The position numbers and the translations under genes were made by a program. Below the pieces are notes generated by a model. It was given only the letters and a program-made list of their open reading frames with translations. It was not told the origin of the DNA and made no database searches. A stretch of DNA of 64,000 bases from Vicinamibacterales bacterium (GTDB taxonomy: Bacteria; Acidobacteriota; Vicinamibacteria; Vicinamibacterales; 2-12-FULL-66-21). The DNA lies in assembly GCA_048594975.1 (NCBI GenBank), contig JBMDXQ010000145.1, forward strand, positions 55,284-119,283, given 5' to 3'. How positions within the stretch are numbered: the first letter of the stretch is position 1; each line of letters starts with the position of its first letter. Positions 37,410 to 63,483 of this stretch are shown here, piece by piece.

Positions 37410-37427
37410 TCCGCCCGGCGTATCGAC

Positions 37428-38981: not shown

Positions 38982-38988
38982 CGCCGGC

Positions 38989-44219: not shown

Positions 44220-45343
44220 AACGGCTCCTGACCATCGCGCATTCCTACGTCGTCGGCCTCAACCGCCGGCTGGCGCACGAGATGGCCATCCAGGGGCAGG
44301 GCGACTGGGACGTGACCGCCGTCGCCCCGCAGCGCTACGCCGGCGACCTGCGCAGCATCGCCGTCGAGTCGGTGCCCGACGAGCGCTGCCGCCTGGAGTC
44401 GGTCCCCGTTCACCTCGACTCGATTCCGCACCTGATGTTCTACGGCCGGGGCCTCGGTGCCACGCTGCGCGGGCGATGGGACGTCGTGCACTGCTGGGAG
44501 GAGCCGTACGTCGCCTCCGGGTTCCAGGTCGCGAGCCAGGCGCCGCCGGGCGCGCGTTTCGTGTTCGCCACGTTCCAGAACATCGCCAAACGCTACCCGC
44601 CGCCGTTCGCCTGGTTCGAACGGCGAGTCCTGGCGCGTGCCGATGGATGGATTGCGTTCGGCCGCACGGTGCACGACACCCAGCAGCCCCGCCCCGGCTT
44701 TGCCGCGCTGCCCTCGCGGATCATCCCGCCGGGAGTGGACACCGAGCGCTTCGCGCCGGATGGTGCCGCGCGGGCTCAGGTGCGCGCGCGGTTCGGCTGG
44801 GACGAGGAAGTTCCCGTTCTCGGGTTTGCCGGCCGCTTCGTCGAGGCGAAGGGCGTCGCGCTGCTCGCCGCGGTCCTTCCGAAGCTGCGCACCTCCTGGC
44901 GCGCCCTCTTCGTCGGTGACGGTCCCGCGCGCCCGCAGCTCGAGGCACTGGCAGCGGACCGGCCGCGCGCCGTGGCCGTCGTCACCGGAGTGACGCACGA
45001 CCAGGTACCGGCGTACCTCAACGCCATGGACCTGCTCTGTGCCCCGAGCCAGACGACGGCGCGGTGGCGCGAGCAGTTCGGGCGCATGTCGATCGAGGCG
45101 ATGGCCTGCGGCGTGCCGGTGGTCGGCAGCGACAGCGGTGAGATCCCGCACGTCGTCGGTGAGGCAGGCGCCATCGTCGCCGAACGCGACGTCGACGGAT
45201 GGGTGGCGGCGATTGACGGCCTGCTTTGCGACGGCCATCGGCGGAAGGCGCTCGGCGCGGCCGGCGTGGCGCGCGCGCGCCAGTACTTCGGCTGGCCGGC
45301 CATCGCCCGCGCGCACCTCGACTTCTTCGAGGATCTGCTGTGA
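44216..45343 (+). CDS. Glycosyltransferase family 4
   Basis: Internal start MKRLLTIAHSYVVGLN, with an ATGA overlap. LLCAPSQTTARWREQFGRMSIEAMACGVPVVGSDSGEIPHVV. Confidence 0.8.
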   Translation: MKRLLTIAHSYVVGLNRRLAHEMAIQGQGDWDVTAVAPQRYAGDLRSIAVESVPDERCRLESVPVHLDSIPHLMFYGRGLGATLRGRWDVVHCWEEPYVASGFQVASQAPPGARFVFATFQNIAKRYPPPFAWFERRVLARADGWIAFGRTVHDTQQPRPGFAALPSRIIPPGVDTERFAPDGAARAQVRARFGWDEEVPVLGFAGRFVEAKGVALLAAVLPKLRTSWRALFVGDGPARPQLEALAADRPRAVAVVTGVTHDQVPAYLNAMDLLCAPSQTTARWREQFGRMSIEAMACGVPVVGSDSGEIPHVVGEAGAIVAERDVDGWVAAIDGLLCDGHRRKALGAAGVARARQYFGWPAIARAHLDFFEDLL

Positions 45344-46521
45344 GCCTGCGCGTGGCCGTCGTCGCCGACTTCGTCGAGGAGGGGTGGCCGAGCATGGACC
45401 TCGTGGCGGAAATGCTCGTCGATCGCCTGGAGCACGAACACGCCGAAGAGGTGACGGTGGCGCTGGTCCGGCCCCCCCTGCGGCGCCGCCTCGGCGTCCT
45501 GCCGGGCACGCGTCGGCTGCGGCCGGCGCTCACTGCCGATCGCATCGTGAACCGCCTCTGGGATTTCCCGCGAAGCCTCGCCGGGCTTGCGGCTCGACAC
45601 CATGTCTTCCACGTTGTCGACCACAGTTACGCGCACCTGGTCCACCGGCTGCCGGCGGAGCGGACGCTCGTCACCTGCCACGACCTCGACGCGTTCCGCT
45701 GCCTGCTCGGCGGCGAACGCGAACGGCGCTCCGCACCGTTCCGGGCGATGACGCGCTACATCCTCGAGGGCCTGAAGCGGGCGGCGCACATCGCCTGCGA
45801 CACCGTCGCGACCCGCGACGCGCTCGTGGCCCAGGCCGGCATTGCCGTGGCGCGAACCAGCGTCGTCCACAACGGGCCCCATCCCGCCTGCAGTCCGGCG
45901 CCCGAACCGTTCGCCGACGGCGAAGCCGGGCGGCTGCTCGGTCCCGACGCGGCGCGAGCGACCTGGATCCTGCACGTCGGCAGCTCGATCCCGCGCAAGC
46001 GCATCGACGTGCTGCTGCGCGTGGTCGCGGCGGTGCGCCGGACGCATCCCGAGGTGCGGCTGATCAGGGTGGGCGGGCCGCTCACTGCCGCGCAGCGCGC
46101 GCTCGCTGACGAGCTGCGCGTCGCGGGTGCGGTCGTCTCGCTGCCGTTCCTCGATCGCGCGACGCTCGCCGCGGTCTACCGTCGAAGCGCCCTGCTGCTG
46201 CTGCCGTCCGACCGCGAGGGGTTCGGGTTGCCGGTGCTTGAGGCGATGGCCTGTGGCACGCCGGTCGTGGCGAGCAGCATCGAGGCGTTGCGCGAGGTCG
46301 GCGGATCGGCGGCCACGTACTGCCCGGCCGGCGACGCCGACGTGTGGGCGGCAGCTGTCGGCGCGTTGCTCGAGGAGCGCCGGACGCGGCCGCAGCTGTG
46401 GGAGGCGAAGCGGCAGGGCGTGATCGCCCGCGCCACCGTGTTCAGCTGGTCGCGCTACACCCGCGACATCGTGACGCTTTATCGCCGGCTCGTCCCCGGC
46501 GGAGTGCCGGAGCCGGCGTGA
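45340..46521 (+). CDS. Glycosyltransferase family 4
   Basis: GTG start (GTGA overlap). LLLLPSDREGFGLPVLEAMACGTPVVASSIEALREV. Confidence 0.8.
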   Translation: MSLRVAVVADFVEEGWPSMDLVAEMLVDRLEHEHAEEVTVALVRPPLRRRLGVLPGTRRLRPALTADRIVNRLWDFPRSLAGLAARHHVFHVVDHSYAHLVHRLPAERTLVTCHDLDAFRCLLGGERERRSAPFRAMTRYILEGLKRAAHIACDTVATRDALVAQAGIAVARTSVVHNGPHPACSPAPEPFADGEAGRLLGPDAARATWILHVGSSIPRKRIDVLLRVVAAVRRTHPEVRLIRVGGPLTAAQRALADELRVAGAVVSLPFLDRATLAAVYRRSALLLLPSDREGFGLPVLEAMACGTPVVASSIEALREVGGSAATYCPAGDADVWAAAVGALLEERRTRPQLWEAKRQGVIARATVFSWSRYTRDIVTLYRRLVPGGVPEPA

Positions 46522-47636
46522 TCTCCGTCGTGCACGTCGCCAAGTTCTATCCGCCGGTTCCCGGGGGTATGGAACGCGTCGTCGAATCGCTTTGCGCCGC
46601 CACGCGCGGGCGCGCCCGGAGCAGCGTCATCGCGCTCAACACCACGCCGCGGACGGTGCACGAGGTTGTCGACGGGGTGGACGTGACGCGTGTCGGGGTC
46701 GCGGCGACGCGCGGCTCGGTTCCGATTGCCCCCGGTCTTGCCGGCGTGTTGCGGCGCGCCCGCGCCGACGTGATGGTGCTGCACGAGCCGAACCCGTGGG
46801 CGCTCACCTCGCTGCTGCTCTCGCGGGTGAAGATGCCGCTCGCCGTGTGGTTCCACAGCGAGGTGGTCCGTCCTCGGCTGCAATACCGGCTGTTCTACGC
46901 CCCGGTGGCGCGGCCGGTCTACCGCCGGGCGCGCCGGATCGTGGTGTCCTCGCCGCCCCTGGCGGAGCACGCGGCGGCGCTGGCGCCGTATCGGGAACGC
47001 GTCGCCGTCGTGCCGTTCGGGATCGACTCGGCCCGCTGGCGCGCCTCGCCGGCGACCGCCACGCGAAGCGCCGCGATCCGGGAAGCGGCGCGCGGCCGGC
47101 CGCTGGTGCTGTTTGCCGGTCGCATGGTGCCGGACAAGGGGCTCGACGTCCTGCTTCGCGCGCTCGAGGGCACCGAGGCGGCGGCCGTGCTCGCCGGCGA
47201 CGGCCCGTCTCGGGCGGAGGCGGAAGCGCTTGCCCGGCGGCTCGGCCTCGACAGCCGCGTCACCTTCACCGGCGAGGTGCCGCATGCGGAGCTGGTCGCG
47301 CTCTATCACGCGTGCGATCTGTTCGTGTTGCCCTCGGTCACTCCCGCCGAAGCGTTCGGTTACGTGCAGCTCGAGGCAATGGCGTGCGGACGGCCGGTGG
47401 TGAGCACGCGCGTGCGATCCGGCGTGCCCTGGGTCAATCGCGACGGTGTGACCGGTCTGACCGTCCCCCCGTCCGATCCCTCCGCACTCCGCCGCGCGAT
47501 CGAGACGCTCGGCGGCGATCCGGATCTGCGCGAGCGGATGGGGGAGGCCGGCCGGGCGCGGGTAGCCTGGGAGTTCACGCTGGAGCGCATGGCGGCGCGG
47601 ACCGCGGCGCTGCTCGAGGACGTGGCGGCCGGCTGA
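46518..47636 (+). CDS. Glycosyltransferase family 4
   Basis: GTG start (GTGA overlap). VISVVHVAKFYPPVPGGMERVV; LFVLPSVTPAEAFGYVQLEAMACGRPVVSTRV. Confidence 0.8.
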   Translation: MISVVHVAKFYPPVPGGMERVVESLCAATRGRARSSVIALNTTPRTVHEVVDGVDVTRVGVAATRGSVPIAPGLAGVLRRARADVMVLHEPNPWALTSLLLSRVKMPLAVWFHSEVVRPRLQYRLFYAPVARPVYRRARRIVVSSPPLAEHAAALAPYRERVAVVPFGIDSARWRASPATATRSAAIREAARGRPLVLFAGRMVPDKGLDVLLRALEGTEAAAVLAGDGPSRAEAEALARRLGLDSRVTFTGEVPHAELVALYHACDLFVLPSVTPAEAFGYVQLEAMACGRPVVSTRVRSGVPWVNRDGVTGLTVPPSDPSALRRAIETLGGDPDLRERMGEAGRARVAWEFTLERMAARTAALLEDVAAG

Positions 47637-48241
47637 TGGCCAAGCGCGCGCTGGACGTGGTGCTGTCGCTCTTCGGCCTGGTGGCGTCGTCGCCGCTCTG
47701 GCCGATCATCGGCGCCGCGATCAAGCTCGAAGACGGCGGCCCGATCTTCTACCGCCAGCCACGGGTCGGGCAGTTCGGCCGCGTGTTCGACGCGCTGAAG
47801 TTTCGATCGATGCGGCCGGATGCCGAGGCGGCGAGCGGCGCGATTCAGGCGGGCGAGAACGATCCGCGCGTGACGCGCGTCGGCCGTGTGATGCGCGCGA
47901 CCGCCATGGACGAACTCCCGCAGCTGTGGAACATCCTGCGCGGCGACATGAGCTTCGTCGGCCCGCGGGCGCTCCGGCCGGGCGAGATCGAATCGGCGGC
48001 CGACGGCCGGATCGTGCGCCTCGATGAGATTCCGGGGTACCACCGGCGCATCACCGTCAGGCCCGGGTTGACGGGCGTGGCACAGGTCTACGCCGCGCGG
48101 GACATTCCGCGGCGCCACAAGTTCAGGTACGATCGACTCTATATCGAGACGCGCTCGTGGACGCTCGACGTGCGGTTGATTCTCCTGTCGTTCTGGATTA
48201 GTTTCCGCGGCACATGGGAAGCCCGGGGCCGAAAATACTGA
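47636..48241 (+). CDS. Priming sugar-phosphate transferase (bacterial sugar transferase family, small PGT)
   Basis: Internal start [22 protein letters not shown], with a TGATG overlap. KFRSM...[22 protein letters not shown]...PGLTG motifs. Confidence 0.85.
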
Positions 48242-48248
48242 GGCTGCC

Positions 48249-49409
48249 GTGCGCGACGTAGCCGTCGTCGGTGCCGGTCCGGCCGGCCTGATCGCGGCAC
48301 GGCGCCTCGCGGCCGCCGGGCACGACGTGGTGGTGCTGGAAGAGCACGAGCACATCGGGGTCCCCGTCCACTGCACCGGCCTCATCGGACTTGACGCCTT
48401 CGCCGAGCTGCCGATCCCCCGCGAGGCGATCCTCGGTACAGCCCGCGCCGCCCGCTTCGTTGCCGCCGACGGCACGTCGGTCGTCGTCGATTCGGAGCGC
48501 GTCTGCGCCGCGGTCATCGATCGCGCCGCGTTCGACCAGGCGCTGGCCCGCGAGACGCGCGAGGCCGGCGCCGAGCTGCGCGCGGGCGCGCGCGTGCGCC
48601 GCATCGACGTCCGGTCCGACCGCGTGGTCATTTCCGGGGACACGGAGGACTCGACGGTCCACGCGCGCCTGTGCGTCCTCGCGTGCGGCGCCAGCTACCG
48701 CTTCAACCGCGCGCTCGGGCTGGGCGTGCCGCGCGCGTTCGTGCAGAGCGCGCAGCTCGAGGCGGCGCTCGAGGGACCCGACAGCATCGAGGTGTTCCTC
48801 GGCCGCTCGGTCGCCCCGGGCGGCTTCGCCTGGCTGGTGCCGTTCCGCCGCGGCCTGCGCTCGTTCACGCGCGTCGGCCTGATGTGCCAGTCCAGCGCCG
48901 CCGGACGCTTCGCCGAGTTCACCGCGGCCATCCGCTCCCGTTTCGACGTGGCCGACCCCTGGCCGGCGCCGCGCGTCAAGCTGCTGCCGCTCGGCCCGGT
49001 CAACCGGACGTATGCGCATCGGATCCTCGCCGTCGGCGACGCCGCCGGGCTGGTCAAGCCCACGACCGGCGGCGGCATCTACTACGGCCTGATCAGCGGC
49101 GATCTCGCGTCGGCCATCGCCGACGAGGCGCTGCGCGAGGGTGATCTGTCGCGTGCGCGTCTGCGCGCCTACGAGAAGCGGTGGCGCCAGCGGCTCGGCG
49201 CGGAAATCCGCGTCGGGCTCGCGTTCCGCCGCCTGGCGTCGCGGCTCACGGACCGGTCGATCGACGCGCTCGTCGAACTTGCGCGCGTGGACGGCCTGCT
49301 GCCGCTGCTCAAGCAGACCGCCGACTTCAACTGGCATCGGCGCTCGGCGCTCGCCCTCCTCCGTCACGCCGAAGTCCGCCGCATCCTCCTCGGTTCCCTC
49401 TGGAGCTGA
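48249..49409 (+). CDS. Geranylgeranyl-reductase-family FAD-dependent oxidoreductase
   Basis: 386 aa with a GTG start. VAVVGAGPAGLIAARRLAAAGHDVVVLE, CTGLIG, VGDAAGLVKPTTGGGIYYGLISG. Confidence 0.75.
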   Translation: MRDVAVVGAGPAGLIAARRLAAAGHDVVVLEEHEHIGVPVHCTGLIGLDAFAELPIPREAILGTARAARFVAADGTSVVVDSERVCAAVIDRAAFDQALARETREAGAELRAGARVRRIDVRSDRVVISGDTEDSTVHARLCVLACGASYRFNRALGLGVPRAFVQSAQLEAALEGPDSIEVFLGRSVAPGGFAWLVPFRRGLRSFTRVGLMCQSSAAGRFAEFTAAIRSRFDVADPWPAPRVKLLPLGPVNRTYAHRILAVGDAAGLVKPTTGGGIYYGLISGDLASAIADEALREGDLSRARLRAYEKRWRQRLGAEIRVGLAFRRLASRLTDRSIDALVELARVDGLLPLLKQTADFNWHRRSALALLRHAEVRRILLGSLWS

Positions 49410-49472
49410 CCGCGCGCCGGCCGCCGCCGGGCGGTTCTGCATCTCATCACCAGTCGTGACACACTGCGCCCC

Positions 49473-50234
49473 GTGACTGATCCGGTTCGCGACGGGCACT
49501 ACGCGCGCAAACAGATCTACTGTCCGACCGCAGTGGTGGCATGGAGCCATCGCCGCCGGTTCGCCCTGGCCACAGAGCTCGCCGGAGAGAGCTCCGGGAG
49601 GCTCCTCGATTTCGGGTGCGGCGACGGCACGTTCGCGGCGCTGGTGCACGATCGGTTTGCCGCAGTGGTCGCCGCCGATCCGGACGCCGCGCAGATGGCC
49701 GACTGCCGGCAGCGATTTGCCGGCCTCGGCAACGTCCAGTTCCTGCTCACCTCGATGCTCGACGCTCCCTCGCATTCCGGGGCATACGACGTGGTGACCT
49801 GCATGGAGGTGCTCGAGCACACGACCGACGCAGAGCGCCGCCGGGTCGTCGATGCGCTGGCGCGGTACGTACGCGCCAAGGGCCGCATCGTGATCAGCGT
49901 CCCGATCGAGATCGGCCCCGCGCTGCTGGCCAAACAGTTCGTCCGGGCGGTCGCGGCACGCCGGGGTCACGGCGACTACCAGCACCGCGAGACCTACACG
50001 CCGCGCGAGATGGCCGTGGCGGTCCTGGGGCGGCGCGCCCTCGCTCGCGCGACCTACACCGCCGATCGCCCTGGTGGTCCTGTGGTCTACTGCGGGCACA
50101 AGGGCTTCGACTGGCGGGTCCTCGAGGCGGAGATTCGCGACCGGCTGGCGGTCGAGCGCCGGGTGTTCTCGCCGGTGCCGTTTGCCGGCCCGCTGCTGAA
50201 CAGCCAGGTCTGGTTCGTGTGCCGACGGAAATGA
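49473..50234 (+). CDS. Class I SAM-dependent methyltransferase
   Basis: 253 aa with a GTG start. LLDFGCGDGTFAAL, VVTCMEVLEH. Confidence 0.75.
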   Translation: MTDPVRDGHYARKQIYCPTAVVAWSHRRRFALATELAGESSGRLLDFGCGDGTFAALVHDRFAAVVAADPDAAQMADCRQRFAGLGNVQFLLTSMLDAPSHSGAYDVVTCMEVLEHTTDAERRRVVDALARYVRAKGRIVISVPIEIGPALLAKQFVRAVAARRGHGDYQHRETYTPREMAVAVLGRRALARATYTADRPGGPVVYCGHKGFDWRVLEAEIRDRLAVERRVFSPVPFAGPLLNSQVWFVCRRK

Positions 50235-51412
50235 GCGGGAGCGCGGGACACGATCGCGTGAGCGAACACGAGATCGCCGCAGTCGTTCGCGGCGGCGCCC
50301 TCGTGCCCTCGAACCCGGCGTCGTTCGTGGCCATGGCGCTCAGGCACCGGATGGCGCCGCTCCTGGTGCATGCCGGGGTGGCGTCGCGGCTGCCGCGGGA
50401 CGAGGGCGCGCGTCTGGTCGAGCATGCCCGCCACGAGCTGGTCGTCGCCGAGCTGCGCGATCGCGAGCTGGCGCGCGTGCTCGCCCTCCTCGACGCAGCC
50501 GGCCTGCGGCCGCTCGTCGTGAAAGGCGCGCACCTGGCGCACACGTGTTACCCGGAGAGCTACCTCAGGCCGCGCGACGACACGGACCTGTTGCTGCCGC
50601 GCGCGGATGCCGCGCGGCTGACAGCGGTCTTGGCGCGCGCGGGCTACCGACGGCTGCCGGACATCACCGCCGATGTCGTGCACGGTCAGGTACTGTTCGA
50701 GCGTGCCGAGAACGTGTCCGTTGTGCTCGACGTGCACTGGCAAATCGCGTCACCCCGGATCGCCGCCGGGCTGCTGTCCTACGACGAACTGATGATCCAC
50801 GCCGTCGACCTGCCGCGCCTCGGCGAAGGTGCGCGAGCGCCGGCCCCCGTGCACGCGCTGGCGCTCGCGTGCATCCACCAGGCGGCGCACCACTCCGGCC
50901 ACGAGCTGCTGCTCTGGATGTACGACATCCACCTGATCGGCTCCCGCTTCACCCCGGCCGACAGCGGCGAGTTCTGCAGCCTGGCGTTCGATCGGAAGAT
51001 GGCTCGACTGTGTGCGCACGCCATCGCGGCGGCAGCCGAGTTCTTCCCCTTCGATTGTTGCGCGGCGCTGCTCGAGCGGCTCGCCGCCGCCGGCAGCCAC
51101 GAGCCCACGGCGTTTCTCGTCGAGCCGCGCACGCCGCTGGCGCAGCTGGCCTCTGACCTCTCGGTCACGCGCACTCCCGCAGCGCGCTTCCGGCTGCTGC
51201 TGGCGCACCTGTTTCCGCCGCCGGCGTATATGCGCCACGCGTACGGCGTGTCGACGACCGCGCTGCTGCCGTTGTTCTACGGCCATCGCATCGCCCGCGG
51301 CGCCGGCCGGTGGTTGCGCGGAGGACTGCGACACACCAACAGGACTGATCAGGAAGTCGTCCCGTCAACCCCCGATCGTCAACGGCCGACTCCCAAGGGA
51401 CCCTCGGGCTGA
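50231..51412 (+). CDS. Uncharacterised nucleotidyltransferase-family protein (NTP_transf_5-like)
   Basis: Internal start MSGSAGHDRV of ORF-track 49541..51412, with an ATGA overlap. LVVKGAHLAHTCYPESYLRPRDDTDLLLPRADAARL..LARAGY...DVHWQI pattern. Confidence 0.65.
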   Translation: MSGSAGHDRVSEHEIAAVVRGGALVPSNPASFVAMALRHRMAPLLVHAGVASRLPRDEGARLVEHARHELVVAELRDRELARVLALLDAAGLRPLVVKGAHLAHTCYPESYLRPRDDTDLLLPRADAARLTAVLARAGYRRLPDITADVVHGQVLFERAENVSVVLDVHWQIASPRIAAGLLSYDELMIHAVDLPRLGEGARAPAPVHALALACIHQAAHHSGHELLLWMYDIHLIGSRFTPADSGEFCSLAFDRKMARLCAHAIAAAAEFFPFDCCAALLERLAAAGSHEPTAFLVEPRTPLAQLASDLSVTRTPAARFRLLLAHLFPPPAYMRHAYGVSTTALLPLFYGHRIARGAGRWLRGGLRHTNRTDQEVVPSTPDRQRPTPKGPSG

Positions 51413-51496
51413 TGTCTTGATCCCGTCCAATGTCCCGGTGTCGGGCAGTCGGGCGCTGGAAGGCAGGAGTCTTCGCCGGCGTTGTTCAGCAGCACG

Positions 51497-52201
51497 TCAG
51501 TCGCGGGGCAGCGGCCGGGCGGCCCGGGGATTTTCGGGAAGCGTCTCGCCGGCGCGCTTCGGAAGGAACCAGTCCACCAGCCGGATCAGCCGGCCGCGTC
51601 GCGTCGGCAGCAACTCCTGCAGCCGCTCGAAGACCATGATCGCGTCCGCCAGCGTGTGCACGACCCCGATGCCGCGCGAGAGCGCGTGCTCCGTGGCGGC
51701 GGTGTCCGGGTCGCGCTGCATCAGCAGCCCCTTGGCTGCCGACGTCGTGACGACATCGACGCAGTTGATCGACAGATCGTCGACAACGATGTCGAGCCGC
51801 AGGCCGTTGGCGATCTCACCGCGCGAGCCCGGCACCGTCAGCACTGCCGGGAGGAAGAACCCGTGCCGCTCGATCCACCATTGCGTCTGGAACTGGACCG
51901 TGTCGCCGGCGCTCGCCGGCCGGTTCGTCAGGAAGAAGACCTCCCACCCGCCCGCCCGCGCCGCGCTGTATAGCCGCGCAATCTGATCGGGCTCGTACGC
52001 CTCCAGGTCCACCCACCAGTTCCTCCGCTGCGCCACCCACTCCCAGACTCGCTTCACGTCCCTCTGCGGGCTCGCGCGCGCACCGGCCGGCTGATCGGCA
52101 TCCCCGATCTCGCGGCCGAGGCACTGCCGCGCGGCGTCGTGAAACGCGGTGCGGAAGTCGGCCAGCACGCCGTCCACGTCGACGCCGATCCTGAGCGCCA
52201 T
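51497..52201 (-). CDS. HAD-superfamily phosphatase, 5'(3')-deoxyribonucleotidase-like
   Basis: 234 aa. Motif I is IGVDVDGVLADF. The start overlaps the stop of the upstream ligase-like gene by 1 nt (TGATG). Confidence 0.6.
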   Translation of the reverse strand: MALRIGVDVDGVLADFRTAFHDAARQCLGREIGDADQPAGARASPQRDVKRVWEWVAQRRNWWVDLEAYEPDQIARLYSAARAGGWEVFFLTNRPASAGDTVQFQTQWWIERHGFFLPAVLTVPGSRGEIANGLRLDIVVDDLSINCVDVVTTSAAKGLLMQRDPDTAATEHALSRGIGVVHTLADAIMVFERLQELLPTRRGRLIRLVDWFLPKRAGETLPENPRAARPLPRD

Positions 52202-53457
52202 CAGGGCGTCGGCGCAGCCGCCTCACGCGACGAGGCGTGGACCAGGATCGCGGCGGCGACCGCGGCGGTGGCGGCATTGGCTGGCGTCGTCAGGCCGGTC
52301 TCGAGCAGGCTCTGGACGGCGACGCCGAACAGGCCGCTCGCCGCGCCCGCTCGGATCCAGAAAATCGGGGTGTCGTCCGAAGCGAGCCGCCGGGACGCGC
52401 CGCGAAGCAGCGCCGCCAGCGCGCCGGCCAGCGGGATTGCCACCAGCAGTCCACCTTCGGAGAGCACCTGCAGGTAGTGGTTGTGCGCCTGGTTGAAGAT
52501 CACGCCCGCCAGGTCACGCTGGTACACGGCCATCGACGTTTGATACGTGCCGAGGCCGGTGCCCGTCAACCAGAAATCCCGGACGACCGCCATCGTATCC
52601 CGCCAGATCGCGGCCCGGCCGGCGACGCTGGCGCCGGCGCTGGCCAGGCGTCCCGTCACGAGCGATGCGTCCATGCCCCACAGGACGATCGCGACCGATG
52701 CCATCGTGCCGCCGGCAATCAGGATCGCCGGGCGCGCCAGCCGGCGCGGCGCGGCGACGAGCCGCCCGCGCGCCAGCAGCGCCGCCACCGCGGCCGCGGC
52801 CACCATCCCGATGACGGCGGACCTCGACAACGAGACGACCGTCGCGGCCATCAGCAGAACGGCCGCGCCAAGCAGCAGCCCGCCGCGCAGATCGAGGGCA
52901 TCCAACAGGCGGCGCTGCCAGGGCGTTCCCGCTCGCGGGCCATGGTGCGCCGTGGCGTGCGCCATCACGTAGCCGGCACACAGCGGTGCGACGAGGATGG
53001 CCCACGTGCCGAAGTGGTTGCGGTTGACGAAGGGGCCGAACGGAGCAGGCCCCTGATCGAGTGGCCGCCACGTCCAGTACATCAGGCCGCGCGCCGTGGC
53101 GTCCTGCGCGACGGCGACGATCGACAGCGTCAGGCCGCTGCAGGCCAGCACGCGCACCACGAGGCGCAAGCCGCCGGCAGCGAAGATGTGCCGCGCGCAG
53201 ACAAACAGCACCAGCGCGCCGCCGAACAGCAGCACGGCCGCGGCCGTCGCGTCGGCATCGATGGTCAGGGGCAGCGACCCGCGCGCGGGCGTCAGGCTCA
53301 GCGCCGTCCCCACGCGTTCGGCGGCGGGGGAAACCGCGGTGCGCAGTAGCGGCGGGAAGGGCACCAGCTGCAGCGCGGCGGTACCGGCGGCGAGTGCCAG
53401 CCAGCGATCGAGTGCCGGCGCCGGACCGCGCCCCAGGACCGCCGGCCGGTACAGCAC
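52201..53457 (-). CDS. O-antigen ligase / Wzy_C-family polytopic membrane protein
   Basis: 418 aa with a GTG start. Many TM segments. FWLTGTGLGTY....Y........AHNHYLQVLSEGGLL is typical of the Wzy_C domain. Confidence 0.75.
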   Translation of the reverse strand: MLYRPAVLGRGPAPALDRWLALAAGTAALQLVPFPPLLRTAVSPAAERVGTALSLTPARGSLPLTIDADATAAAVLLFGGALVLFVCARHIFAAGGLRLVVRVLACSGLTLSIVAVAQDATARGLMYWTWRPLDQGPAPFGPFVNRNHFGTWAILVAPLCAGYVMAHATAHHGPRAGTPWQRRLLDALDLRGGLLLGAAVLLMAATVVSLSRSAVIGMVAAAAVAALLARGRLVAAPRRLARPAILIAGGTMASVAIVLWGMDASLVTGRLASAGASVAGRAAIWRDTMAVVRDFWLTGTGLGTYQTSMAVYQRDLAGVIFNQAHNHYLQVLSEGGLLVAIPLAGALAALLRGASRRLASDDTPIFWIRAGAASGLFGVAVQSLLETGLTTPANAATAAVAAAILVHASSREAAAPTP

Positions 53458-56459: not shown

Positions 56460-56910
56460 CTACGACCAGCGCAATTTTGAAGCCGTGTGTGTCCCGGCAT
56501 CGTACCGGCTCGACGCCATGGGACAACCGGAGTGGCCAGCGGAAGCCTCGGCAGCCCCGGGCTTCTCTGCAAGGCGGTAAACCCGTAGAGCCAAAGTACT
56601 TAATGACCATCGCCGCACGGGCGCCCGGGACGCCAGTCGAACCATGTACCGCGCGGTCGACGCACGGCGTCTTCACAGGCGTTCCGGGCGCGGCCCGGAG
56701 GCCCGCGACGCTCATCCACCCGCGGTTCAGAACCGTGATCGATATTGCAGTGCTGTTATCAGCCGGCCCAACGCTGCCACGAGGCCGGACGGCGCTGCGC
56801 GGCGGCCGCGGCAATCCGGTGCGAATCTCGCCAGCCACGCCTGTCTGCAGCGGGCTCCAGCCGAGGCGCGCCGGCCGCACCATTTTGTGGCCGGGAGTTA
56901 CAATTCGCGC

Positions 56911-57189
56911 ATGGCCGTCACGCTGGAGTCCCGTGTGTCAATTTCCGACGACGCGGTTTTCCGCGAGCTCGAGGGGGAGGCGGTGATCGTTCATCTCGAC
57001 TCCGGGACGTACTACGGCCTCGATCCCGTCGGGACCCGACTGTGGCAGCTGATCGACACGCACGGGCGACTGCAGCGTGCATTCGACGCGGCGCTCGAGG
57101 AGTTCGATGTCGAACCGGAACGGCTGCAACACGATCTGCTCCAGCTCGTGTCCGAGCTCGCGCGCCACAGGCTCGTCGAGGTACGGTGA
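56911..57189 (+). CDS. PqqD-family RiPP recognition element (lasso peptide B1)
   Basis: Internal start MAVTLESRVS of ORF-track 56644..57189. AVFRELEGEAVIVHLDSGTYYGLDPVGTRLWQLID is a typical PqqD fold sequence. Confidence 0.85.
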   Translation: MAVTLESRVSISDDAVFRELEGEAVIVHLDSGTYYGLDPVGTRLWQLIDTHGRLQRAFDAALEEFDVEPERLQHDLLQLVSELARHRLVEVR

Positions 57190-57596
57190 TGGGGCGCGCG
57201 AACGCCGGGCCGCCGTTCGCGCTGCGTCTCGAAGCGTACGTGCTGGCCGTGCTCGTCCGCATCATCCTCCGCACCACGTCGCTCAAGCGCGCGGGTGCGC
57301 TGCTCGCGCGCGTGCCACGGCGCCGCGCGGGCGGCGCCGACACCGCCGCAACCTGTCTCGGCGCAGCTTCCGAGGCCGCGGCCCGAGTCGCCCACCCGAC
57401 CTGCCTCTTCGAGTCGCTGGTTGCCTTCGCGCTGCTCGCGCGGCGCGGCTACGACGTCGTGCTCCACGTCGGCGCCAGGCGCGAAGCCGGGCTGGAGGCG
57501 CACGCCTGGGTGACGATCGCGGGTCGCCCCTGCCAGCCGGAAGCGCTCCTCGGCTACACCGAGTTCTGGCGCGTCGTGGCCGCGTCCGGACGGTGA
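57189..57596 (+). CDS. Lasso peptide biosynthesis B2 protein (transglutaminase-like Cys protease)
   Basis: Internal start MGRANAGPP, with a TGATG overlap. CLFESLVAFALLARRGYDVVLHVGAR......HAWVTIAG matches the catalytic Cys/His signature of B2 leader peptidases. Confidence 0.85.
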   Translation: MGRANAGPPFALRLEAYVLAVLVRIILRTTSLKRAGALLARVPRRRAGGADTAATCLGAASEAAARVAHPTCLFESLVAFALLARRGYDVVLHVGARREAGLEAHAWVTIAGRPCQPEALLGYTEFWRVVAASGR

Positions 57597-57600
57597 GCGC

Positions 57601-59469
57601 ATGAGCGGCGTTGCCGCCGTCTTGCGCGCGTCCGCCGACGCACCGGCGGAAGCGGACCTCGGGCCCATGCTCGCCGCCTCGGCGCACCGAGCGCCTCACG
57701 GGACCGCCGCATGGTCGGGTGAGGGCGTCGCGCTCGGATACCTGTCGTTCGAGACGATTCCCGGCAGCGAACCGCAACCGCTCGTCGACCCGTTGCGCGG
57801 CCTGGCGATCGTGTTCGATGGCCGCCTCGACAATCGCGAGGAGCTGGCGACGGCGCTGGACGTGGATGCCGGGACGTCGGATTCGCGCCTGGTACTCGAG
57901 GCCTTTGCCGCCTGGGGACCCGGGGCCGCGCCGCGTGCGCTCGGCGACTTCGCGTGGATCGCATGGGACGCGGTCCGCCGCCGGCTGGTGGCGGCGCGCG
58001 ATCATCTTGGCAGCCGTCCCCTGCATTACTGCGCGCGACCCGACGTGGTCCTCTGCGCGACCGATGTGGCCCAGTTGCTGGCGCATGCCTCGACGCCCCG
58101 GGAGGCCGACCCGGATGTCGTCGCCGATTACCTCGCGCTCGACGTGCAGAACGCCGCCGCGACGCTGCTGCGCGGCGTCAACCGCGTGCCGCCCGGCCAC
58201 GTGCTGGTCGTCGAGCGGGGCCGCGCGTCTCTCCGCCGGTACTGGCGCGCCGAGCCGCGCGAGACGCTGCGCCTGCGCGGCGATCGCGAGTATGCGCAGC
58301 GATGCCGCGAGCTGCTGGCGCGCAGCGTCGCCGCGCGGATGCGGAGCCGCCGTCCGGTGGCGGCGATGCTGAGCGGCGGCGTCGATTCGTCGTCGATCGT
58401 GGCGACGGCTGCGCGGCTGCAGGCGGGGCCGGGCGCGGGCATCGCGCCGTACTCGATGGTGTTTCCCGGCCGCTCGGAGGCGGACGAGCGCGCGTTCATC
58501 GAAGAGGTCGCGGCGCACCACGGCCTGACGGCCGTGCTCGTGGAGCCCGCGCGCGTGACCGCGCGCGCCATGCGCGAGCACGCCGCGCGAACGCTCGACT
58601 GCCCAGCCTTTGCGTCCGACTTCGGCGCCCGCAGCCTGTACGACGCGATTCGCGGCCGCGGGCACGACGTCGTGCTCACCGGCGCCGGCGGCGACTACCT
58701 GTTCGGCGGCAGCGTGTTCCAGTACGCCGACCACCTCCGCGAGTTACGCGTCGCAGCCGCCGTGCGCCAGTTCCTCGCCGACCGGCACACCCAGTCGTCC
58801 GGTTGGTCCCGCCTGGCGCTGTTCCAGGCCGGCGTCTGGCCGCTCCTGCCGGGAGGGCTCAAACGCGTCCTGCGTCCCGCGGCGCGCCGCGTTGCCGGGA
58901 TACGCGACCGCCCGCCGTGGTTGCGGCTTCCGCGGGCGGCGCGACCGGCGACGCCGGAGCGGCAGCGCGGCGGGAGCTTCGCGACCGAGGAAGTGACGCG
59001 CGAGCTGGGGAGCGGACTGCACAGTCTCTTCCTCGAGGCCGGGGAGCGCGAGCTCGCCCGGGTGCCGCTCGAAGCCCGAGACCCGCTGCTCGACGTGCGC
59101 CTGGTGGAGTTCGCGCTGTCGATTCCAGAGACCCAGCGCCGCCGGGGGCCGGTGCACAAGTTGGTGCTGCGCAACGCCCTCGGGCCGGATCTCCCGCCGC
59201 GCGTCGCCACGCGGCGGACCAAGGCCGCGTTCGGCTACGTGATCATGGAGGTGCTCGCGGCGCTCGGCGGCGCCAGCTTCCTCACCTCGATGCGCATCGC
59301 CGAGGCGGGCTGGGTCGATGGCGCCGCGCTCGCGACGGCATACGAGCGCGCGCGGCGGCGGTTCTCCGCCGGCGACCTGCGGTACGGGAACGAGTTGCCC
59401 TGGCTCTGGATGGCAGTCGCGATCGAGTTGTGGTTCGACGCGGTGTTCGAGCGCGCGTCGCCGGGGTGA
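57601..59469 (+). CDS. Asparagine-synthetase-like lasso cyclase (C protein)
   Basis: 622 aa. The N-terminus is MSGV (Ser in place of the glutaminase Cys). PP-loop is VAAMLSGGVDSSSIV. Flanked by B2 and the precursor. Confidence 0.85.
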   Translation: MSGVAAVLRASADAPAEADLGPMLAASAHRAPHGTAAWSGEGVALGYLSFETIPGSEPQPLVDPLRGLAIVFDGRLDNREELATALDVDAGTSDSRLVLEAFAAWGPGAAPRALGDFAWIAWDAVRRRLVAARDHLGSRPLHYCARPDVVLCATDVAQLLAHASTPREADPDVVADYLALDVQNAAATLLRGVNRVPPGHVLVVERGRASLRRYWRAEPRETLRLRGDREYAQRCRELLARSVAARMRSRRPVAAMLSGGVDSSSIVATAARLQAGPGAGIAPYSMVFPGRSEADERAFIEEVAAHHGLTAVLVEPARVTARAMREHAARTLDCPAFASDFGARSLYDAIRGRGHDVVLTGAGGDYLFGGSVFQYADHLRELRVAAAVRQFLADRHTQSSGWSRLALFQAGVWPLLPGGLKRVLRPAARRVAGIRDRPPWLRLPRAARPATPERQRGGSFATEEVTRELGSGLHSLFLEAGERELARVPLEARDPLLDVRLVEFALSIPETQRRRGPVHKLVLRNALGPDLPPRVATRRTKAAFGYVIMEVLAALGGASFLTSMRIAEAGWVDGAALATAYERARRRFSAGDLRYGNELPWLWMAVAIELWFDAVFERASPG

Positions 59470-59555
59470 CGCCGGTCCGGCTGCGGGCTATGATGTCAGG
59501 AGCGAGGCGCGCCGCCTCCATGTCCCGGCGGCCGCGGAGGGCTGGCGGGGGCTGC

Positions 59556-59735
59556 ATGACCGAAGAAAACGCCCGGAACGAAAGGTCCGCGCCGCAGCAG
59601 GTCCGGCCGCCGCGGCGCCCCTACACGTCCCCGCGGCTCATCGAGTACGGCTCGGTCGCCAAGCTGACCCGCGGTCAGCGCTCGGTCAACTCGGATTTCC
59701 CGAAGGCCGGTTTCCAGCGATCGCATTGCCTCTGA
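59556..59735 (+). CDS. Lasso peptide precursor (A), 59 aa, not listed as its own ORF
   Basis: MTEENARNERSAPQQVRPPRRPYTSPRLIEYGSVAKLTR/GQRSVNSDFPKAGFQRSHCL. Exact Y-x2-P-x-L-x3-G-x5-T-x-G leader pattern, with Thr at -2, Gly1 and Asp8. GGAGG lies at 59537-59541. Confidence 0.8.
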   Translation: MTEENARNERSAPQQVRPPRRPYTSPRLIEYGSVAKLTRGQRSVNSDFPKAGFQRSHCL

Positions 59736-59745
59736 GCGTTCCCGT

Positions 59746-60888
59746 GTGTCGCTGATCGTCGATGAGCACCGCGAGTACCTGTCCGACGCGACGCGGCTGG
59801 CCGTGTTCGCGCGCGCGCTCGCCCACCACGTCGCCCCGCAATCGATCGTCGCCGACCTGGGGACGGGCACCGGGATCCTCGCGGTCCTCGCCTGCCGCGC
59901 CGGCGCCGCCCGCGTGTACGCCATCGAGTCGACCGGCATGGTGGAAATCGCCCGCGCCGTCGCGACCGCCAATGGCTTCGCCGGCCGCATCCACGTGATC
60001 AAGGCGGACGTCGCCGAGGTGGCCCTCCCCGAGCGGGTCGATGTCATCGTCGGCGACTTCGTCGGCCGGTTCGGGTTCGAGTCGGGGATCTTCGAGTCGT
60101 ATCCTGCGGCGGCGGCCGCGCTGTTGAAGCCGGGCGGAGTCGTGATCCCGTCAGAGATCACGCTGTCGATCTTTCCGGTCGAATCAACCGGTCTGGACGA
60201 GCGCGTGCGGTTCTGGCAGGCCCCGCGACAGGGCGTCGTCGTGGCGCCGGCGGAGGACTGGGCGCTCAACACCGGCTATCCTGCCGCGATCGGCGCGGTG
60301 GCGCTGCTCGGAGACGCCGTGGAGGTCGCGCGCGTGCCGACCACCTCCGTGACCGCGCACAGCCTCGGCGCTGACGTGCGCCTGGTCATCCGGCGCGCCG
60401 GCGTCCTCCACGGGCTGGGCGGTGCCTTTGCCGCGCAGCTGGCGCCGGGCGTCACGCTGACGAACGCGCCCACCGCGGTCGAGCGCATCGCGCGGCGCAA
60501 CGTCTTCTTTCCCGTTCGAACGCCGGTGGAGGTGACCGAGGGAGACATGGTCCAGGTTCGGATGCGGATCCTCCCGACCGAGTCGATCGTGAGCTGGACC
60601 GTCGAGGTGCGTGCCGCCGATGGTGCCGTGCGCATGCGCAGCGCCCACTCGACGCTGCATGGCCTGTTGATCGCGCGCGAGGACCTGGCGCGCGCCCGGC
60701 CGGATTTCGTGCCCGCGCTGACGCGACGCGGGAACGCGCGACTGACGGTGCTCGCTTTGTGCGACGGACGGCGGACGCTGAGCGAGGTCGAGCGGGGCGT
60801 ATACGACCTGCACCAGGAGCTGTTCGAGACGCCGGCCGAGGCGGCGGCCTTCGTCGCGGAAGTGACCTCCAGGTACGCGCGGACATGA
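59746..60888 (+). CDS. PRMT-fold SAM methyltransferase fused to a C-terminal PqqD/RRE-like domain
   Basis: 380 aa with a GTG start. Motif I VADLGTGTGILAVLACRAGAARVYAIE. Double-acid loop VDVIVGDFVGRFGFESGIFES. LKPGGVVIPS plus a beta-barrel-like middle section (VLHGLGGAFAAQL...TNAP...NVFFPV). C-terminus ARLTVLALCDGRRTLSEVERGVYDL...AAAFVAEV is PqqD-like. Confidence 0.7.
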   Translation: MSLIVDEHREYLSDATRLAVFARALAHHVAPQSIVADLGTGTGILAVLACRAGAARVYAIESTGMVEIARAVATANGFAGRIHVIKADVAEVALPERVDVIVGDFVGRFGFESGIFESYPAAAAALLKPGGVVIPSEITLSIFPVESTGLDERVRFWQAPRQGVVVAPAEDWALNTGYPAAIGAVALLGDAVEVARVPTTSVTAHSLGADVRLVIRRAGVLHGLGGAFAAQLAPGVTLTNAPTAVERIARRNVFFPVRTPVEVTEGDMVQVRMRILPTESIVSWTVEVRAADGAVRMRSAHSTLHGLLIAREDLARARPDFVPALTRRGNARLTVLALCDGRRTLSEVERGVYDLHQELFETPAEAAAFVAEVTSRYART

Positions 60889-61841
60889 AATACTGCGCCT
60901 TCGGCTGCACACTCGAGAGCGACGAGCCGCTTCCGGAGCTGCCGCCGGCGCCCGGTTCGCCGGCGCCGCGGTGGCGCGTGTTCTGGCACGATTCGATCCG
61001 CTGGCCGGCCGCGCTGCGATGGCGCACGCTGTGGGCCGCGGCCCGCGCGGACGGCGGCGTCGCGGTGGCACGCGCCGCGGGCACGTGCTTCCTGCGGTTC
61101 GACGGCCTCGCGACGGCGGCGATCGGCCGCGGGCGCATCGCCCTCGCCCCCGTTCACTCGGCGGATCCCGAGGCCGTCCGCCACGCCCTGCTCGATCAGA
61201 TCTTGCCGCTGGCTCTCGCCGCCGCGGGGGAAACGGTCCTGCACGCAAGCGCCGTGGCGGCCGGTGGCGCCGCGCTGCTGTTCGCGGGCGGCGCGGGGTC
61301 CGGGAAATCGACGCTGGCCGCTGCGCTGTCGGCTGGTGGCGCGGAAGTGCTCGCCGACGACGGCGTGCTGCTCGAGCGCCGCGGCGAGGCGGTCTGGGCC
61401 GTCCCGTCCTATCGGGGCCTGCGGCTGTGGCCGGACGCTGCGGCCGGTACGGTTGTGCGCGGTTTCTCGATGGCGGCGCGGCCGCGTCGCGCCGCCGCGA
61501 TCGAGAAGTATCGTCTCGTGCCGCGCGACGCCGTGATCTGCGCACCGGCGTTACCGGTCGCCGCGGTGTACACGCTGCATCCCGGGTCGGGCGCGCCGGC
61601 GTTCTCCAGGCTCACGCGCCGGGACACCGCGCTGGAGCTGGTCAGACACGCGTACACGCCGGAGCCCGCTGGCCGTGCCGGCGTCGTCGCCCACCTCGAC
61701 CGCGCCGTATCCTGGTCCGAGGGACTGGACGTGTGGCGGCTCGACGCGCCGCGCGACCTCACGAGCCTGCCGGGGCTCGCCGCCGCCGTCCTGGCACACG
61801 CCGGCGCGCGCGGCGCTTCTGCTAGATTACAGACCCGATGA
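60885..61841 (+). CDS. HPr-kinase-related P-loop protein (putative RiPP kinase)
   Basis: Internal start MKYCAFGCTLES of ORF-track 60759..61841, with an ATGA overlap. LHASAVAAGGAALLFAGGAGSGKSTLAAAL is typical of the HprK C-terminal kinase domain. Confidence 0.7.
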   Translation: MKYCAFGCTLESDEPLPELPPAPGSPAPRWRVFWHDSIRWPAALRWRTLWAAARADGGVAVARAAGTCFLRFDGLATAAIGRGRIALAPVHSADPEAVRHALLDQILPLALAAAGETVLHASAVAAGGAALLFAGGAGSGKSTLAAALSAGGAEVLADDGVLLERRGEAVWAVPSYRGLRLWPDAAAGTVVRGFSMAARPRRAAAIEKYRLVPRDAVICAPALPVAAVYTLHPGSGAPAFSRLTRRDTALELVRHAYTPEPAGRAGVVAHLDRAVSWSEGLDVWRLDAPRDLTSLPGLAAAVLAHAGARGASARLQTR

Positions 61842-62680
61842 CACGACAGGTCGACGTGCTGACTTCGGCGACGCTCAAACACCTCCGCGACCGTTGGTGG
61901 GATGACGACTTCACCGAGTTCATGCGGGACACCGTCGCGCCCCGCCCGGGCCAACGGATCCTCGACGTCGGCTGCGGCACCGGCACCGCGGAGGTGCGCC
62001 TGTCGCGGCTGCGCATCTCGCAGATCAACATCGTCGCCGTCGACCTGGTAGTGGAGCGCGTGGCGCAGGCGCGGACGGCGGCGCAGGCGCACAACATCCG
62101 CTCCAGCTTTGCGGCGGCGGACGCCTGCGTGCTGCCCTTCGGCGACGACACGTTTGACTCGGCATTCTGCGTCGCCGTGCTCCAGCACATCCGCGACGTC
62201 CCGCGCGCCGTCCGGGAGCTCGCCCGGGTCACGCGGCCGGGAGGCCGCGTCGTCGCCGTCGAGCCGGACAACTCGGGCCGCTACTTCTACAGCTCGTCGG
62301 ACGCGGGGCGCCGCGCCTATGACGCCGCCGGCCAGTTCTTCGCCACGCTCGCGGAGATCCGCGGCGACGCGACCGACCGCGCCGTCGGGCCGAAGCTGCC
62401 CGCGCTGTTCGCGCAGAGCGGCATCCATCCCCTGCGCGTCCACCTGTTTCCGGTCTCCCGCGCGCAGCTGGGCGCGCCCTCCGATGCCGTCTGGGCGGAG
62501 CGGCGGGCCGCAGTGCGGGACGCAGCCGAGCATGCGCCCGACGACGCGATCGGCCGGCTCGGACGCGATTATCTGAAGCTCCTGGATCGCTACGCCCAGG
62601 AGGCGCACGCCGCCGGTCCGGCGTTCGTCGAGATCCAGAACACGCTGCTCTTCGCTACCGTCGGGCAGCGGCCGGAATGA
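61838..62680 (+). CDS. Class I SAM-dependent methyltransferase
   Basis: 280 aa with an ATGA overlap. ILDVGCGTGTAEV, FDSAFCVAVLQHI, RPGGRVVAVE. Confidence 0.8.
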   Translation: MTRQVDVLTSATLKHLRDRWWDDDFTEFMRDTVAPRPGQRILDVGCGTGTAEVRLSRLRISQINIVAVDLVVERVAQARTAAQAHNIRSSFAAADACVLPFGDDTFDSAFCVAVLQHIRDVPRAVRELARVTRPGGRVVAVEPDNSGRYFYSSSDAGRRAYDAAGQFFATLAEIRGDATDRAVGPKLPALFAQSGIHPLRVHLFPVSRAQLGAPSDAVWAERRAAVRDAAEHAPDDAIGRLGRDYLKLLDRYAQEAHAAGPAFVEIQNTLLFATVGQRPE

Positions 62681-63483
62681 TGGCCCACCGCGGCCCGGGT
62701 GGCGCGGCGCGTCGCGCGCCTCGCGCCGGCGCCGCCGGCTGGGACGAGTACGCGCCGTTCTACGACTGGGAGAATGCGCAGACGGTGGCCCGCCGCGACG
62801 TCGCGTTCTGGCAGCGGCTCGCCGCGGCGCAGGACGGCACGGTCCTCGAGCTCGGGTGCGGTACGGGGCGGATCTCCGTGCCGGTCGCGCGGACGGGCGC
62901 GCGGCTGGTCGGCATCGATCGGTCGGCGCCGATGCTGCGGCGCGCCGCGCAGCGGCTGCGCCGCGTGCCGGGCGCGTGCGCACGGCTCGTGCGCGGCGAC
63001 ATCCGGGCGCTGCCCTTCCGGCAGCGGGTCGGCTTCTCGCTGGTGATGGCGCCGTACGGGATGCTGCAGTCGCTGACCAGCGAGCGCGACCTGCGCGCGA
63101 CGCTGCATTCGATTCACCGGGTACTGCGTCGCGGCGGCCTGCTGGCGATCGACCTGGTGCCCGACCTGCCCCGCTGGCAGGAGTACTCACGGCGCACCAC
63201 CCTCTCCGGGCGCCGCGGGCGCGGCCACCTGACGCTGGTCGAATCGGTACGCCAGGACCGTCGGCGCCGGCTGACGATCTTCGACCAGGAATACGTGGAG
63301 CGCCGCGGTCGCAGCCGCCGGTCGCACCGCTTCTCCCTCGCGTTCCGGACGCTGTCGGTGCGGGAGGTGGCGGCGCGCCTCGAAGCTGCCGGGTTCCAGG
63401 TCCAGGCAGTCCTCGGCGACTATCAGGGCGGCCCGTGGGATGAACGCGCCGACGTGTGGCTCATCCTCGCGGTGCGGCACTAG
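62677..63483 (+). CDS. Class I SAM-dependent methyltransferase
   Basis: 268 aa with an ATGA overlap. VLELGCGTGRISVPVA..GARLVGIDRS, LRRGGLLAIDL. Confidence 0.8.
   Translation: MMAHRGPGGAARRAPRAGAAGWDEYAPFYDWENAQTVARRDVAFWQRLAAAQDGTVLELGCGTGRISVPVARTGARLVGIDRSAPMLRRAAQRLRRVPGACARLVRGDIRALPFRQRVGFSLVMAPYGMLQSLTSERDLRATLHSIHRVLRRGGLLAIDLVPDLPRWQEYSRRTTLSGRRGRGHLTLVESVRQDRRRRLTIFDQEYVERRGRSRRSHRFSLAFRTLSVREVAARLEAAGFQVQAVLGDYQGGPWDERADVWLILAVRH

Follow-up and report, generated by a model that had tools for sequence, protein, structure and literature searches.

A candidate lasso peptide precursor gene in a split-B cluster with kinase and methyltransferase genes from a Vicinamibacterales bacterium

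In a 64,000-nucleotide (nt) stretch of contig JBMDXQ010000145.1 from a Vicinamibacterales bacterium (the window), a tightly packed, intact plus-strand operon carries the genes B1, B2, C, A, MT1, K, MT2 and MT3. Gene A, the subject of this report, very probably encodes a genuine lasso peptide precursor (lasso peptides being knotted natural products of ribosomal origin), one of a known class but with tailoring of an uncharacterised kind. The gene and the parts of its predicted product lie as follows.

59556..59735, plus strand: lasso precursor gene A, 59 amino acids plus stop (motif, NCBIfam leader model, homologues, GC at third codon positions, alignment)
59556..59672, plus strand: leader peptide, 39 amino acids, ending in ...PYTSPRLIEYGSVAKLTR (NF033521 match; near-invariant in relatives)
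59673..59732, plus strand: core peptide GQRSVNSDFPKAGFQRSHCL (family statistics)
59673-59675, 59682-59684 and 59694-59696, plus strand: core codons Gly1, Ser4 and Asp8
59712-59714 and 59727-59732, plus strand: core codons Phe14 and Cys19-Leu20

The open reading frame (ORF) runs from ATG 59556 to the TGA at 59733-59735 and translates as MTEENARNERSAPQQVRPPRRPYTSPRLIEYGSVAKLTRGQRSVNSDFPKAGFQRSHCL. Its start, stop and 59-residue translation are identical to those of the original prediction, and the leader-motif residues named there (Y23, P26, L28, G32, T38 and G40) all stand at their predicted positions. Also as described there, the ORF is listed only as the tail of one of 593 residues (57954..59735) that runs over the cyclase gene in a different frame. 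The strict motif Y-x2-P-x-L-x3-G-x5-T-x-G has a single match in the roughly 128,000 six-frame codons of the window, where 0.002 matches would be expected by composition and shuffled sequence averaged 0.02, and this sole match lies 87 nt 3′ of the stop codon of the lasso cyclase gene; a search of all six frames for a second precursor copy in the window recovered the leader motif just this once. The NCBIfam model NF033521 for the leader of lasso-type RiPPs (peptides synthesized on ribosomes and modified post-translationally) matches residues 23-41 with 24.7 bits (cut-off 19). At the three codon positions the ORF has a GC content of 0.62/0.55/0.85, and the flanking genes of this 71% GC window show a matching pattern. 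Because the curated NCBI leader model already matches the ORF, it should not escape the usual RiPP mining tools, and by itself it represents an ordinary kind of discovery.

The predicted leader holds the YxxPxL motif to which the RiPP recognition element (RRE) binds and a Thr at position -2. The core that follows begins with Gly1 and places Asp8 within the range of positions 7-9; the 12 residues after Asp8 include bulky residues that could act as plugs. The composition claimed for the core is also correct, with Asp8 as its sole acidic residue beside two Arg, one Lys, three Ser, one His and one Cys. The computed mass is 2233.081 Da for the linear core and 2215.0705 Da for the lasso (core minus H2O; [M+3H]3+ 739.364).

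The other genes of the operon are the following.

56911..57189, plus strand: B1, PqqD-type RRE protein with predicted leader binding (Pfam PqqD 3e-16; NCBIfam lasso PqqD chaperone 6e-13, below cut-off)
57189..57596, plus strand: B2, transglutaminase-like leader peptidase (Pfam Transglut_core3 2.5e-15; NF033537 lasso B2 56.4 bits, cut-off 33)
57601..59469, plus strand: C, asparagine-synthetase-like lasso cyclase (Asn_synthase 2.8e-47; NF033535 4.5e-95, below cut-off; SGGVDSS PP-loop)
59746..60888, plus strand: MT1, 380-residue methyltransferase of type I protein arginine methyltransferase (PRMT) fold with a C-terminal three-helix domain, 10 nt 3′ of A
60885..61841, plus strand: K, HprK-related peptide kinase (motif and local profile matches), its start overlapping the MT1 stop
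61838..62680, plus strand: MT2, UbiE-like class I methyltransferase (Pfam Methyltransf_11 1.4e-21; synteny)
62677..63483, plus strand: MT3, class I methyltransferase nearest to a daptide RiPP methyltransferase (NF041820 1.5e-24, below cut-off)

Overlaps of 1-4 nt join B1 to B2 (the B2 start overlapping the B1 stop), MT1 to K, K to MT2 and MT2 to MT3, and the intact B1, B2 and C genes show translational coupling. MT3 is the final gene of the operon, the next being a YebC-family gene at 63753; MT2 and MT3 are confined to the subclade of the window. The three intact genes B1, B2 and C adjoining the ORF support its identity as a precursor, as does the comparative evidence.

A protein search returned 19 homologous peptides of 50-75 residues, all metagenomic and none bearing a functional name. 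In their alignment the leader end (...IEYGSVAKLTR, followed by Gly) is invariant, as are Gly1 and Asp8, Ser4 and Gly13 are near-invariant, and 13 of the 20 aligned peptides end in Cys-Leu. Leader-pattern scans of GTDB genomes and JGI metagenomes added 39 further loci, the GTDB matches being metagenome-assembled genomes (MAGs) of Vicinamibacterales; the scan pattern does not account for the conservation seen in these loci at the acidic position and at the ending. Among the 44 distinct cores, the acidic residue stands at position 8 in 40, at 9 in three and at 10 in one; every core has Ser or Thr at position 4 or 5, 34 end in Cys-Leu or Cys-Ile, and nine contain neither Arg nor Lys. A profile search of 1.84 billion representatives yielded 709 relatives at E ≤ 0.001, spanning Acidobacteriota (Vicinamibacterales), Nitrospira and Methylomirabilis; the best 150 of the 709 include 145 with the leader motif, of which 125 are acidic at position 8, and 87 in which a final hydrophobic residue follows Cys. 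By tblastn, the order B1-(B2)-C-A-MT1-K is present in every locus of sufficient length, down to 30-50% identity, and the synteny B1-B2-C-A-MT1-K holds across phyla. It is followed by an NTP_transf_5 gene in three sampled contexts (a 4.1-Mb contig, a Ca. Methylomirabilis MAG and Nitrospira MAGs), the precursors of which end in MCL, VCI and VCL. On this evidence the precursor is part of a large, widespread and unstudied clade from uncultured soil bacteria, with the Cys-Leu ending as its hallmark.

The comparative data back the proposed leader/core boundary after Thr38-Arg39, and they support the predicted Gly1-Asp8 ring, since the spacing between Thr(-2) and the acidic residue is constant in relatives. 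Two further proposals fared less evenly. Of the three plug candidates, Phe14 is Phe or Tyr throughout the subclade of the window and appears to be the best, whereas Arg16 and His18 are not conserved. Ser, Cys, His, Arg and Lys had all been put forward as acceptors for the tailoring enzymes; Ser4 and the Cys19-Leu20 pair are conserved, but Arg and Lys are not, both being missing from the nine cores mentioned above. This leaves Ser4 and the C-terminal Cys19-Leu20 as the conserved candidates for modification.

The following pathway would account for these features. Gene A would be transcribed from its own probable promoter in the gap between C and A and translated from ATG 59556 into a 39-residue leader and a 20-residue core. 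As in established lasso biosynthesis, B1 would bind the Y23-x2-P26-x-L28 motif of the leader and B2 would cut after Thr38-Arg39; C would then adenylate Asp8 and join it to the amine of Gly1, closing an eight-residue macrolactam through which the 12-residue loop and tail would be threaded, with Phe14 as the likeliest steric plug. The tailoring steps are proposed with lower confidence: K would probably phosphorylate the ring Ser4 on the leader-bearing precursor, in the manner of BsfK at Ser3, MT1 would probably methylate at Cys19-Leu20 rather than at a core Arg, and MT2 and MT3 would add further methyl groups specific to the subclade. We observed the gene and its conservation, the families of the enzymes and how these co-occur, and infer every chemical step; we hold with high confidence to the reading as a whole, in which A is the precursor gene of a split-B lasso cluster with this pathway and tailoring.

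For K, eight residues (H120, G135, G140, K141, S142, T143, D158 and D159) are conserved in 19 orthologues, and their motif and spacing (H-to-G 15, K-to-D 17) are those of H148...G163..G166.G168-K169-S170...D186-D187 in BsfK, the catalytic motif of which is essential by mutagenesis (PMC10368454). This resemblance places K with the lasso precursor kinases, as judged from conserved residues. With the help of B1, BsfK phosphorylates core Ser3 while the leader is still attached (PMC10368454). The core encoded in the window lacks the paeninodin-type acceptor, a C-terminal Ser, having Leu as its last residue, and Ser4 is compatible with a BsfK-type acceptor near the core start. Because the C-terminal Ser is lacking and the ring Ser/Thr is universally conserved, K would most likely phosphorylate the ring Ser4.

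MT1 can be assigned firmly to the type I PRMT fold on the strength of its sequence and predicted structure. By phmmer against the PDB, it matches PRMT4/6/CARM1 at 1.8e-25, and its AlphaFold2 model, with a predicted local distance difference test (pLDDT) score of 93.5, comprises an S-adenosylmethionine (SAM)-binding Rossmann domain and a beta-barrel and aligns by Foldseek to PRMT1/2/6 over ~320 columns (E ~1e-27, template modelling (TM) score 0.65-0.71). More than 800 homologues were found, the best 120 being mostly of ~380 residues, and in relatives MT1 lies directly 3′ of A. The guanidinium-binding loops of type I PRMTs are not preserved: in the double-E loop an invariant Asp104 stands in for the first Glu and the second acidic residue is offset by one, and the THW loop aligns, weakly (-1.9 bits), to Ile-Ala-Arg. 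Cores without Arg or Lys, such as STTGSVGDGGGGGMMMVCL, nevertheless have MT1 adjacent. Because of these Arg-free cores, the altered double-E loop and the replacement of THW, MT1 most likely does not methylate a core Arg, and we rejected core arginine methylation as the main interpretation.

The C terminus offers another target. With MT1 next to A, 23 distinct cases end in C[LI] and five end otherwise; where MT1 is absent and K directly follows A, none ends in C[LI] and three end otherwise. These three MT1-less loci are L005 (10172-10245), L052 (1783-1836) and L053 (722-735), with the endings ...KKDH, ...VKKP and ...KRRS, and the first of them keeps a 13-codon stub of MT1. The association of MT1 with the Cys-Leu ending is suggestive only; because the presence of MT1 tracks the conserved Cys19-Leu20, its likely target would be the Cys19 thiol or the terminal Leu carboxylate.

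Replacement of the Cys by selenocysteine (TGA) in relatives without Cys-Leu was also considered and rejected, as the DNA of the three MT1-less loci has a real stop, then unrelated sequence and then the kinase gene. For the C-terminal ~70 residues of MT1, considered as a fused PqqD-like RRE, Pfam and PDB profile searches gave nothing significant and hhalign against the B1 profile gave P = 0.075. In the model (pLDDT 93.5), this domain forms three helices and lacks the PqqD beta-sheet, and PqqD 3g2b is only a weak second match by Foldseek (E 0.9, TM 0.53). None of MT1, MT2 and MT3 reaches a PCMT cut-off, MT2 coming nearest (PF01135, 20.0 bits vs 20.3), and the core has Asn6-Ser7, not the Asp6-Thr7 of the aspartimide type.

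Several observations weigh against this interpretation of the cluster. Since YGSVAKLTR served as the search pattern, its invariance among the scanned loci is in part built in, and the position of the conserved Ser/Thr varies (4 or 5) once the cores are aligned on the acidic residue. The matches of K to HPr-kinase models are local, confined to the P-loop region, and below cut-offs (TIGR04352, 1.6e-9, 37.3 bits vs 200; Pfam Hpr_kinase_C, PF07475, 3.9e-4, 20.4 bits vs 33.3), so that K falls short of the curated scores of HPr kinase/phosphorylase proper (PF07475, TIGR00679), and a PDB search with K found nothing significant (1ko7, E 0.49). The five loci with MT1 that do not end in Cys-Leu (L009, L010, L023, L038 and L054) make the link between the two one-directional and not the whole story, and the three MT1-less loci fall in one subclade, so that their losses may not be independent. 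Finally, no transporter or isopeptidase gene adjoins the cluster in the window.

A lasso-type precursor might mature in some other way, with a different ring size, as an unthreaded branched-cyclic product, or through a thioether in which dehydroalanine derived from phospho-Ser4 is joined to Cys19, locking the tail to the ring. The wide conservation of both the Ser/Thr at 4 or 5 and the penultimate Cys beside a Ser/Thr-type kinase would suit such a link, and the non-canonical first residues (Asn, His, Thr) of some relatives could point to a different ring. We nevertheless consider these outcomes unlikely, since Asp8 is the sole acidic residue and its spacing to Thr(-2) is the feature that is conserved. 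For the thioether in particular, Pfam and NCBIfam scans detected no lanthionine lyase or cyclase domain in the operon, and K appears to be independent of the Cys because loci that have lost Cys-Leu keep it.

The position of the start codon bears on the length of the leader. A protein collection contains a 71-residue call for this ORF from ATG 59520 (P0001; span 59520-59735), and the frame is open back to 57954; translation from ATG 59520, or from the ATGs at 59490/59493, would lengthen the leader by 12-22 residues and leave the mature peptide unchanged. In the alignment of the C-A gap from the window and three related loci, however, ATG 59556 is invariant, whereas ATG 59520 is not conserved (CAC in L001), and the homologues, nearly all of 54-63 residues, begin at the aligned Met. 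Two candidate control elements lie in front of the invariant codon.

59466..59494, plus strand: putative promoter-like site, GTGACG, 17-nt spacer, TATGAT (scan of the C-A intergenic gap)
59547..59551, plus strand: Shine-Dalgarno-like GGGGG run, 4 nt 5′ of the start codon (sequence and alignment; GGAGG in relatives)

The promoter scan of the C-A gap found one site, compared with 0.0 in shuffles, and the -10 box (TA..AT GT) is invariant across four related loci. Because of this conserved box and the GTGACG-17-TATGAT arrangement, gene A probably has its own promoter, and hence its own transcript start, in the gap. A transcript begun just past the -10 box, which ends at 59494, would not contain 59490/59493, and ahead of 59520 it would have only a very short 5′ leader. 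An upstream start is therefore quite improbable, and the invariance of ATG 59556 supports it as the translation start, as originally proposed; gene callers do find the ORF but probably miscall its start at 59520. The remaining alternative is that the ORF arose by chance in GC-rich DNA, or has decayed, and yields no product. Its shortness and its overlap with longer spurious ORFs in other frames could be cited in favour, but the comparative data effectively refute this reading: hundreds of relatives conserve the ORF, and their substitutions fall mainly outside the leader motif. It is also opposed by a motif count of one where 0.002 was expected, a score above the curated cut-off, coding-like GC at third positions and intact catalytic motifs in all of the partner enzymes, so that we give it almost no credence.

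All the criteria that could be applied identify the predicted product as a lasso peptide. Among the known systems closest to its cluster are the phosphorylated-lasso ones, namely paeninodin (PadeK), ThcoK, pseudomycoidin (PsmK/PsmN) and the Bradymonas BsfA/BsfK pair, which share with it the split B1/B2, the asparagine-synthetase-like cyclase and the YxxPxL...T leader. The kinases PadeK, ThcoK and BsfK have the same motif, H...G..G.GKS...DD, with the same spacing as K (PMC10368454), a nucleotidyltransferase gene is likewise associated with the present cluster family, and Ser3 near the core start of the BsfK substrate parallels the conserved Ser4. The differences are equally clear: PadeK-type kinases modify a C-terminal Ser whereas the core in the window ends in Leu, BsfA has Ile(-2) where Thr(-2) stands here, and in the order B1-B2-C-A-MT1-K a PRMT-fold enzyme is placed between A and K. 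The phosphorylated systems have no counterpart to the conserved Cys-Leu ending.

SAM-dependent methyltransferases are likewise found in the clusters for lassomycin-type methyl esters (StspM) and for the aspartimides (cellulonodin-2, lihuanodin) made with protein isoaspartyl methyltransferases (PIMTs), and StspM modifies the C terminus on the linear precursor (PMC9266682). MT1, however, has the Rossmann and beta-barrel domains of a type I PRMT and belongs to neither the mitomycin-O-MT-like nor the PIMT family, and the Asp6-Thr7 conserved in cellulonodin-2 and lihuanodin is missing from the core. With eukaryotic PRMT1/2/6 and CARM1, MT1 shares a whole-fold match of ~320 residues, SAM motif I and an acidic first double-E position (Asp104), but it is bacterial and RiPP-associated, has an extra three-helix domain, carries Ile-Ala-Arg in place of THW by the weak alignment noted above, and stands beside many Arg-free cores. 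Reviews from 2022 and 2026 describe as lasso methylations only C-terminal O-methyl esters, made by another methyltransferase family, and PIMT aspartimides (PMC9266682 among the sources), and no PRMT-like lasso tailoring is listed in reviews up to 2026. A literature survey up to 2026, covering lasso peptides with PRMT-type methyltransferases, the host taxa and the leader string GSVAKLT, turned up no account of the clade, which the RODEO paper (PMC5391289) may nonetheless mention. The PRMT-fold methyltransferase and the conserved Cys-Leu terminus set the cluster apart from all of the characterised lasso systems that we found.

The value of the system lies less in the single ORF than in the pattern of the clade, in which A, MT1 and K form a fixed module, a Ser/Thr in the ring is universal, and the Cys-Leu ending was not seen without a PRMT-fold methyltransferase; the literature and reviews searched, up to 2026, describe none of these features, and the pattern makes for a plausible and readily testable new tailoring variant. 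A bolder proposal, which we regard as possible but rather doubtful, is that a very large lasso clade (at least 709 clusters at 50% identity, in Acidobacteriota, Nitrospirota and Methylomirabilota) is defined by a new C-terminal modification, in which an enzyme of PRMT fold has been re-tooled to methylate the Cys-Leu end (S-methyl-Cys or a Leu methyl ester), together with phosphorylation of the ring Ser/Thr. In the same proposal, the thioether-rich, Met-rich tails of many relatives (MMMVCL) and His18-Cys19 of this core would fit the binding of a soft metal, for example Cu(I), rather than an antibiotic role. Should the chemistry inferred for the cluster prove right, it would be a new tailoring reaction for lasso peptides and a case of a bacterial PRMT-fold enzyme acting on a non-arginine peptide substrate. 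The system can be tested directly, with a single precursor of 59 residues, a set of five to eight genes and mass shifts that are defined beforehand (+14.016 Da for each methyl, +79.966 Da for phosphate).

Among the relatives, many cores in L020-L046 and L047-L051 have Gly-rich loops and Met-rich tails ahead of Cys-Leu (GGGGGMMMVCL, GMFMSTVCL), and these tails resemble Cu(I)-binding Met motifs. Most MT1-bearing relatives without Cys still end in Met-containing tails (NMMRA, NKMMM, GMTGMN). A sub-family with the same leader type (P0219, P0246, P0249 and P0254) has long cores of 33-35 residues with basic tails (...PKKRR, ...AKRR, ...LKKR) replacing Cys-Leu.

Around the operon, exopolysaccharide genes (CarboxypepD_reg, Wzz/GNVR, Wzy) lie upstream on the minus strand, and one further pair of genes may be connected with the cluster.

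49473..51412, plus strand: class I methyltransferase (49473-50234) and NTP_transf_5 nucleotidyltransferase (50231-51412; Pfam NTP_transf_5 7.5e-30), possibly a detached part of the cluster

This pair stands 5.5 kb 5′ of B1, with three exopolysaccharide genes (HAD-like, Wzy, Wzz) between, and the same split layout is seen in L005. The cluster in the window may be split, with the pair as its detached part, since relatives from Nitrospira and Methylomirabilis have NTP_transf_5 immediately after K. Immediately in front of B1, the sequence GTTACAAT is invariant 7-9 nt 5′ of the start codon in three loci (56890-56913 in the window, L001 and L005). The promoter scan found no -35 element 5′ of B1, and B1-B2-C may be expressed from a leaderless or very-short-leader mRNA.

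The predicted first residue of the ring is Asn, His or Thr in L018, L023, L035-L037, L041 and L010, with the acidic residue still at 8 or 9; His1 and Thr1 would be unusual as ring residues. For Asn1, as predicted in L035-L037 and L041, metanodin, a soil-metagenome lasso peptide of a gammaproteobacterial lineage, offers one experimental precedent (PMC12670498). The core in the window differs from it in beginning with the canonical Gly, and the metanodin abstract does not mention tailoring enzymes.

In one Vicinamibacterales MAG contig (GTDB contig JBFWUM010000001.1), two 16-kb stretches, L010 at 36553-52612 and L011 at 81433-97492, are base-for-base identical and each contain a full lasso cluster, the result of a recent large-scale duplication or else of an error in assembly. 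In L006 (2-368), tandem precursor genes with differing cores, GGGSLQSDGGSTFKRTCL and GGGSLQADGGSTFKRTKGMCL, lie upstream of MT1, and one of the two has Gln instead of Arg at leader position -1.

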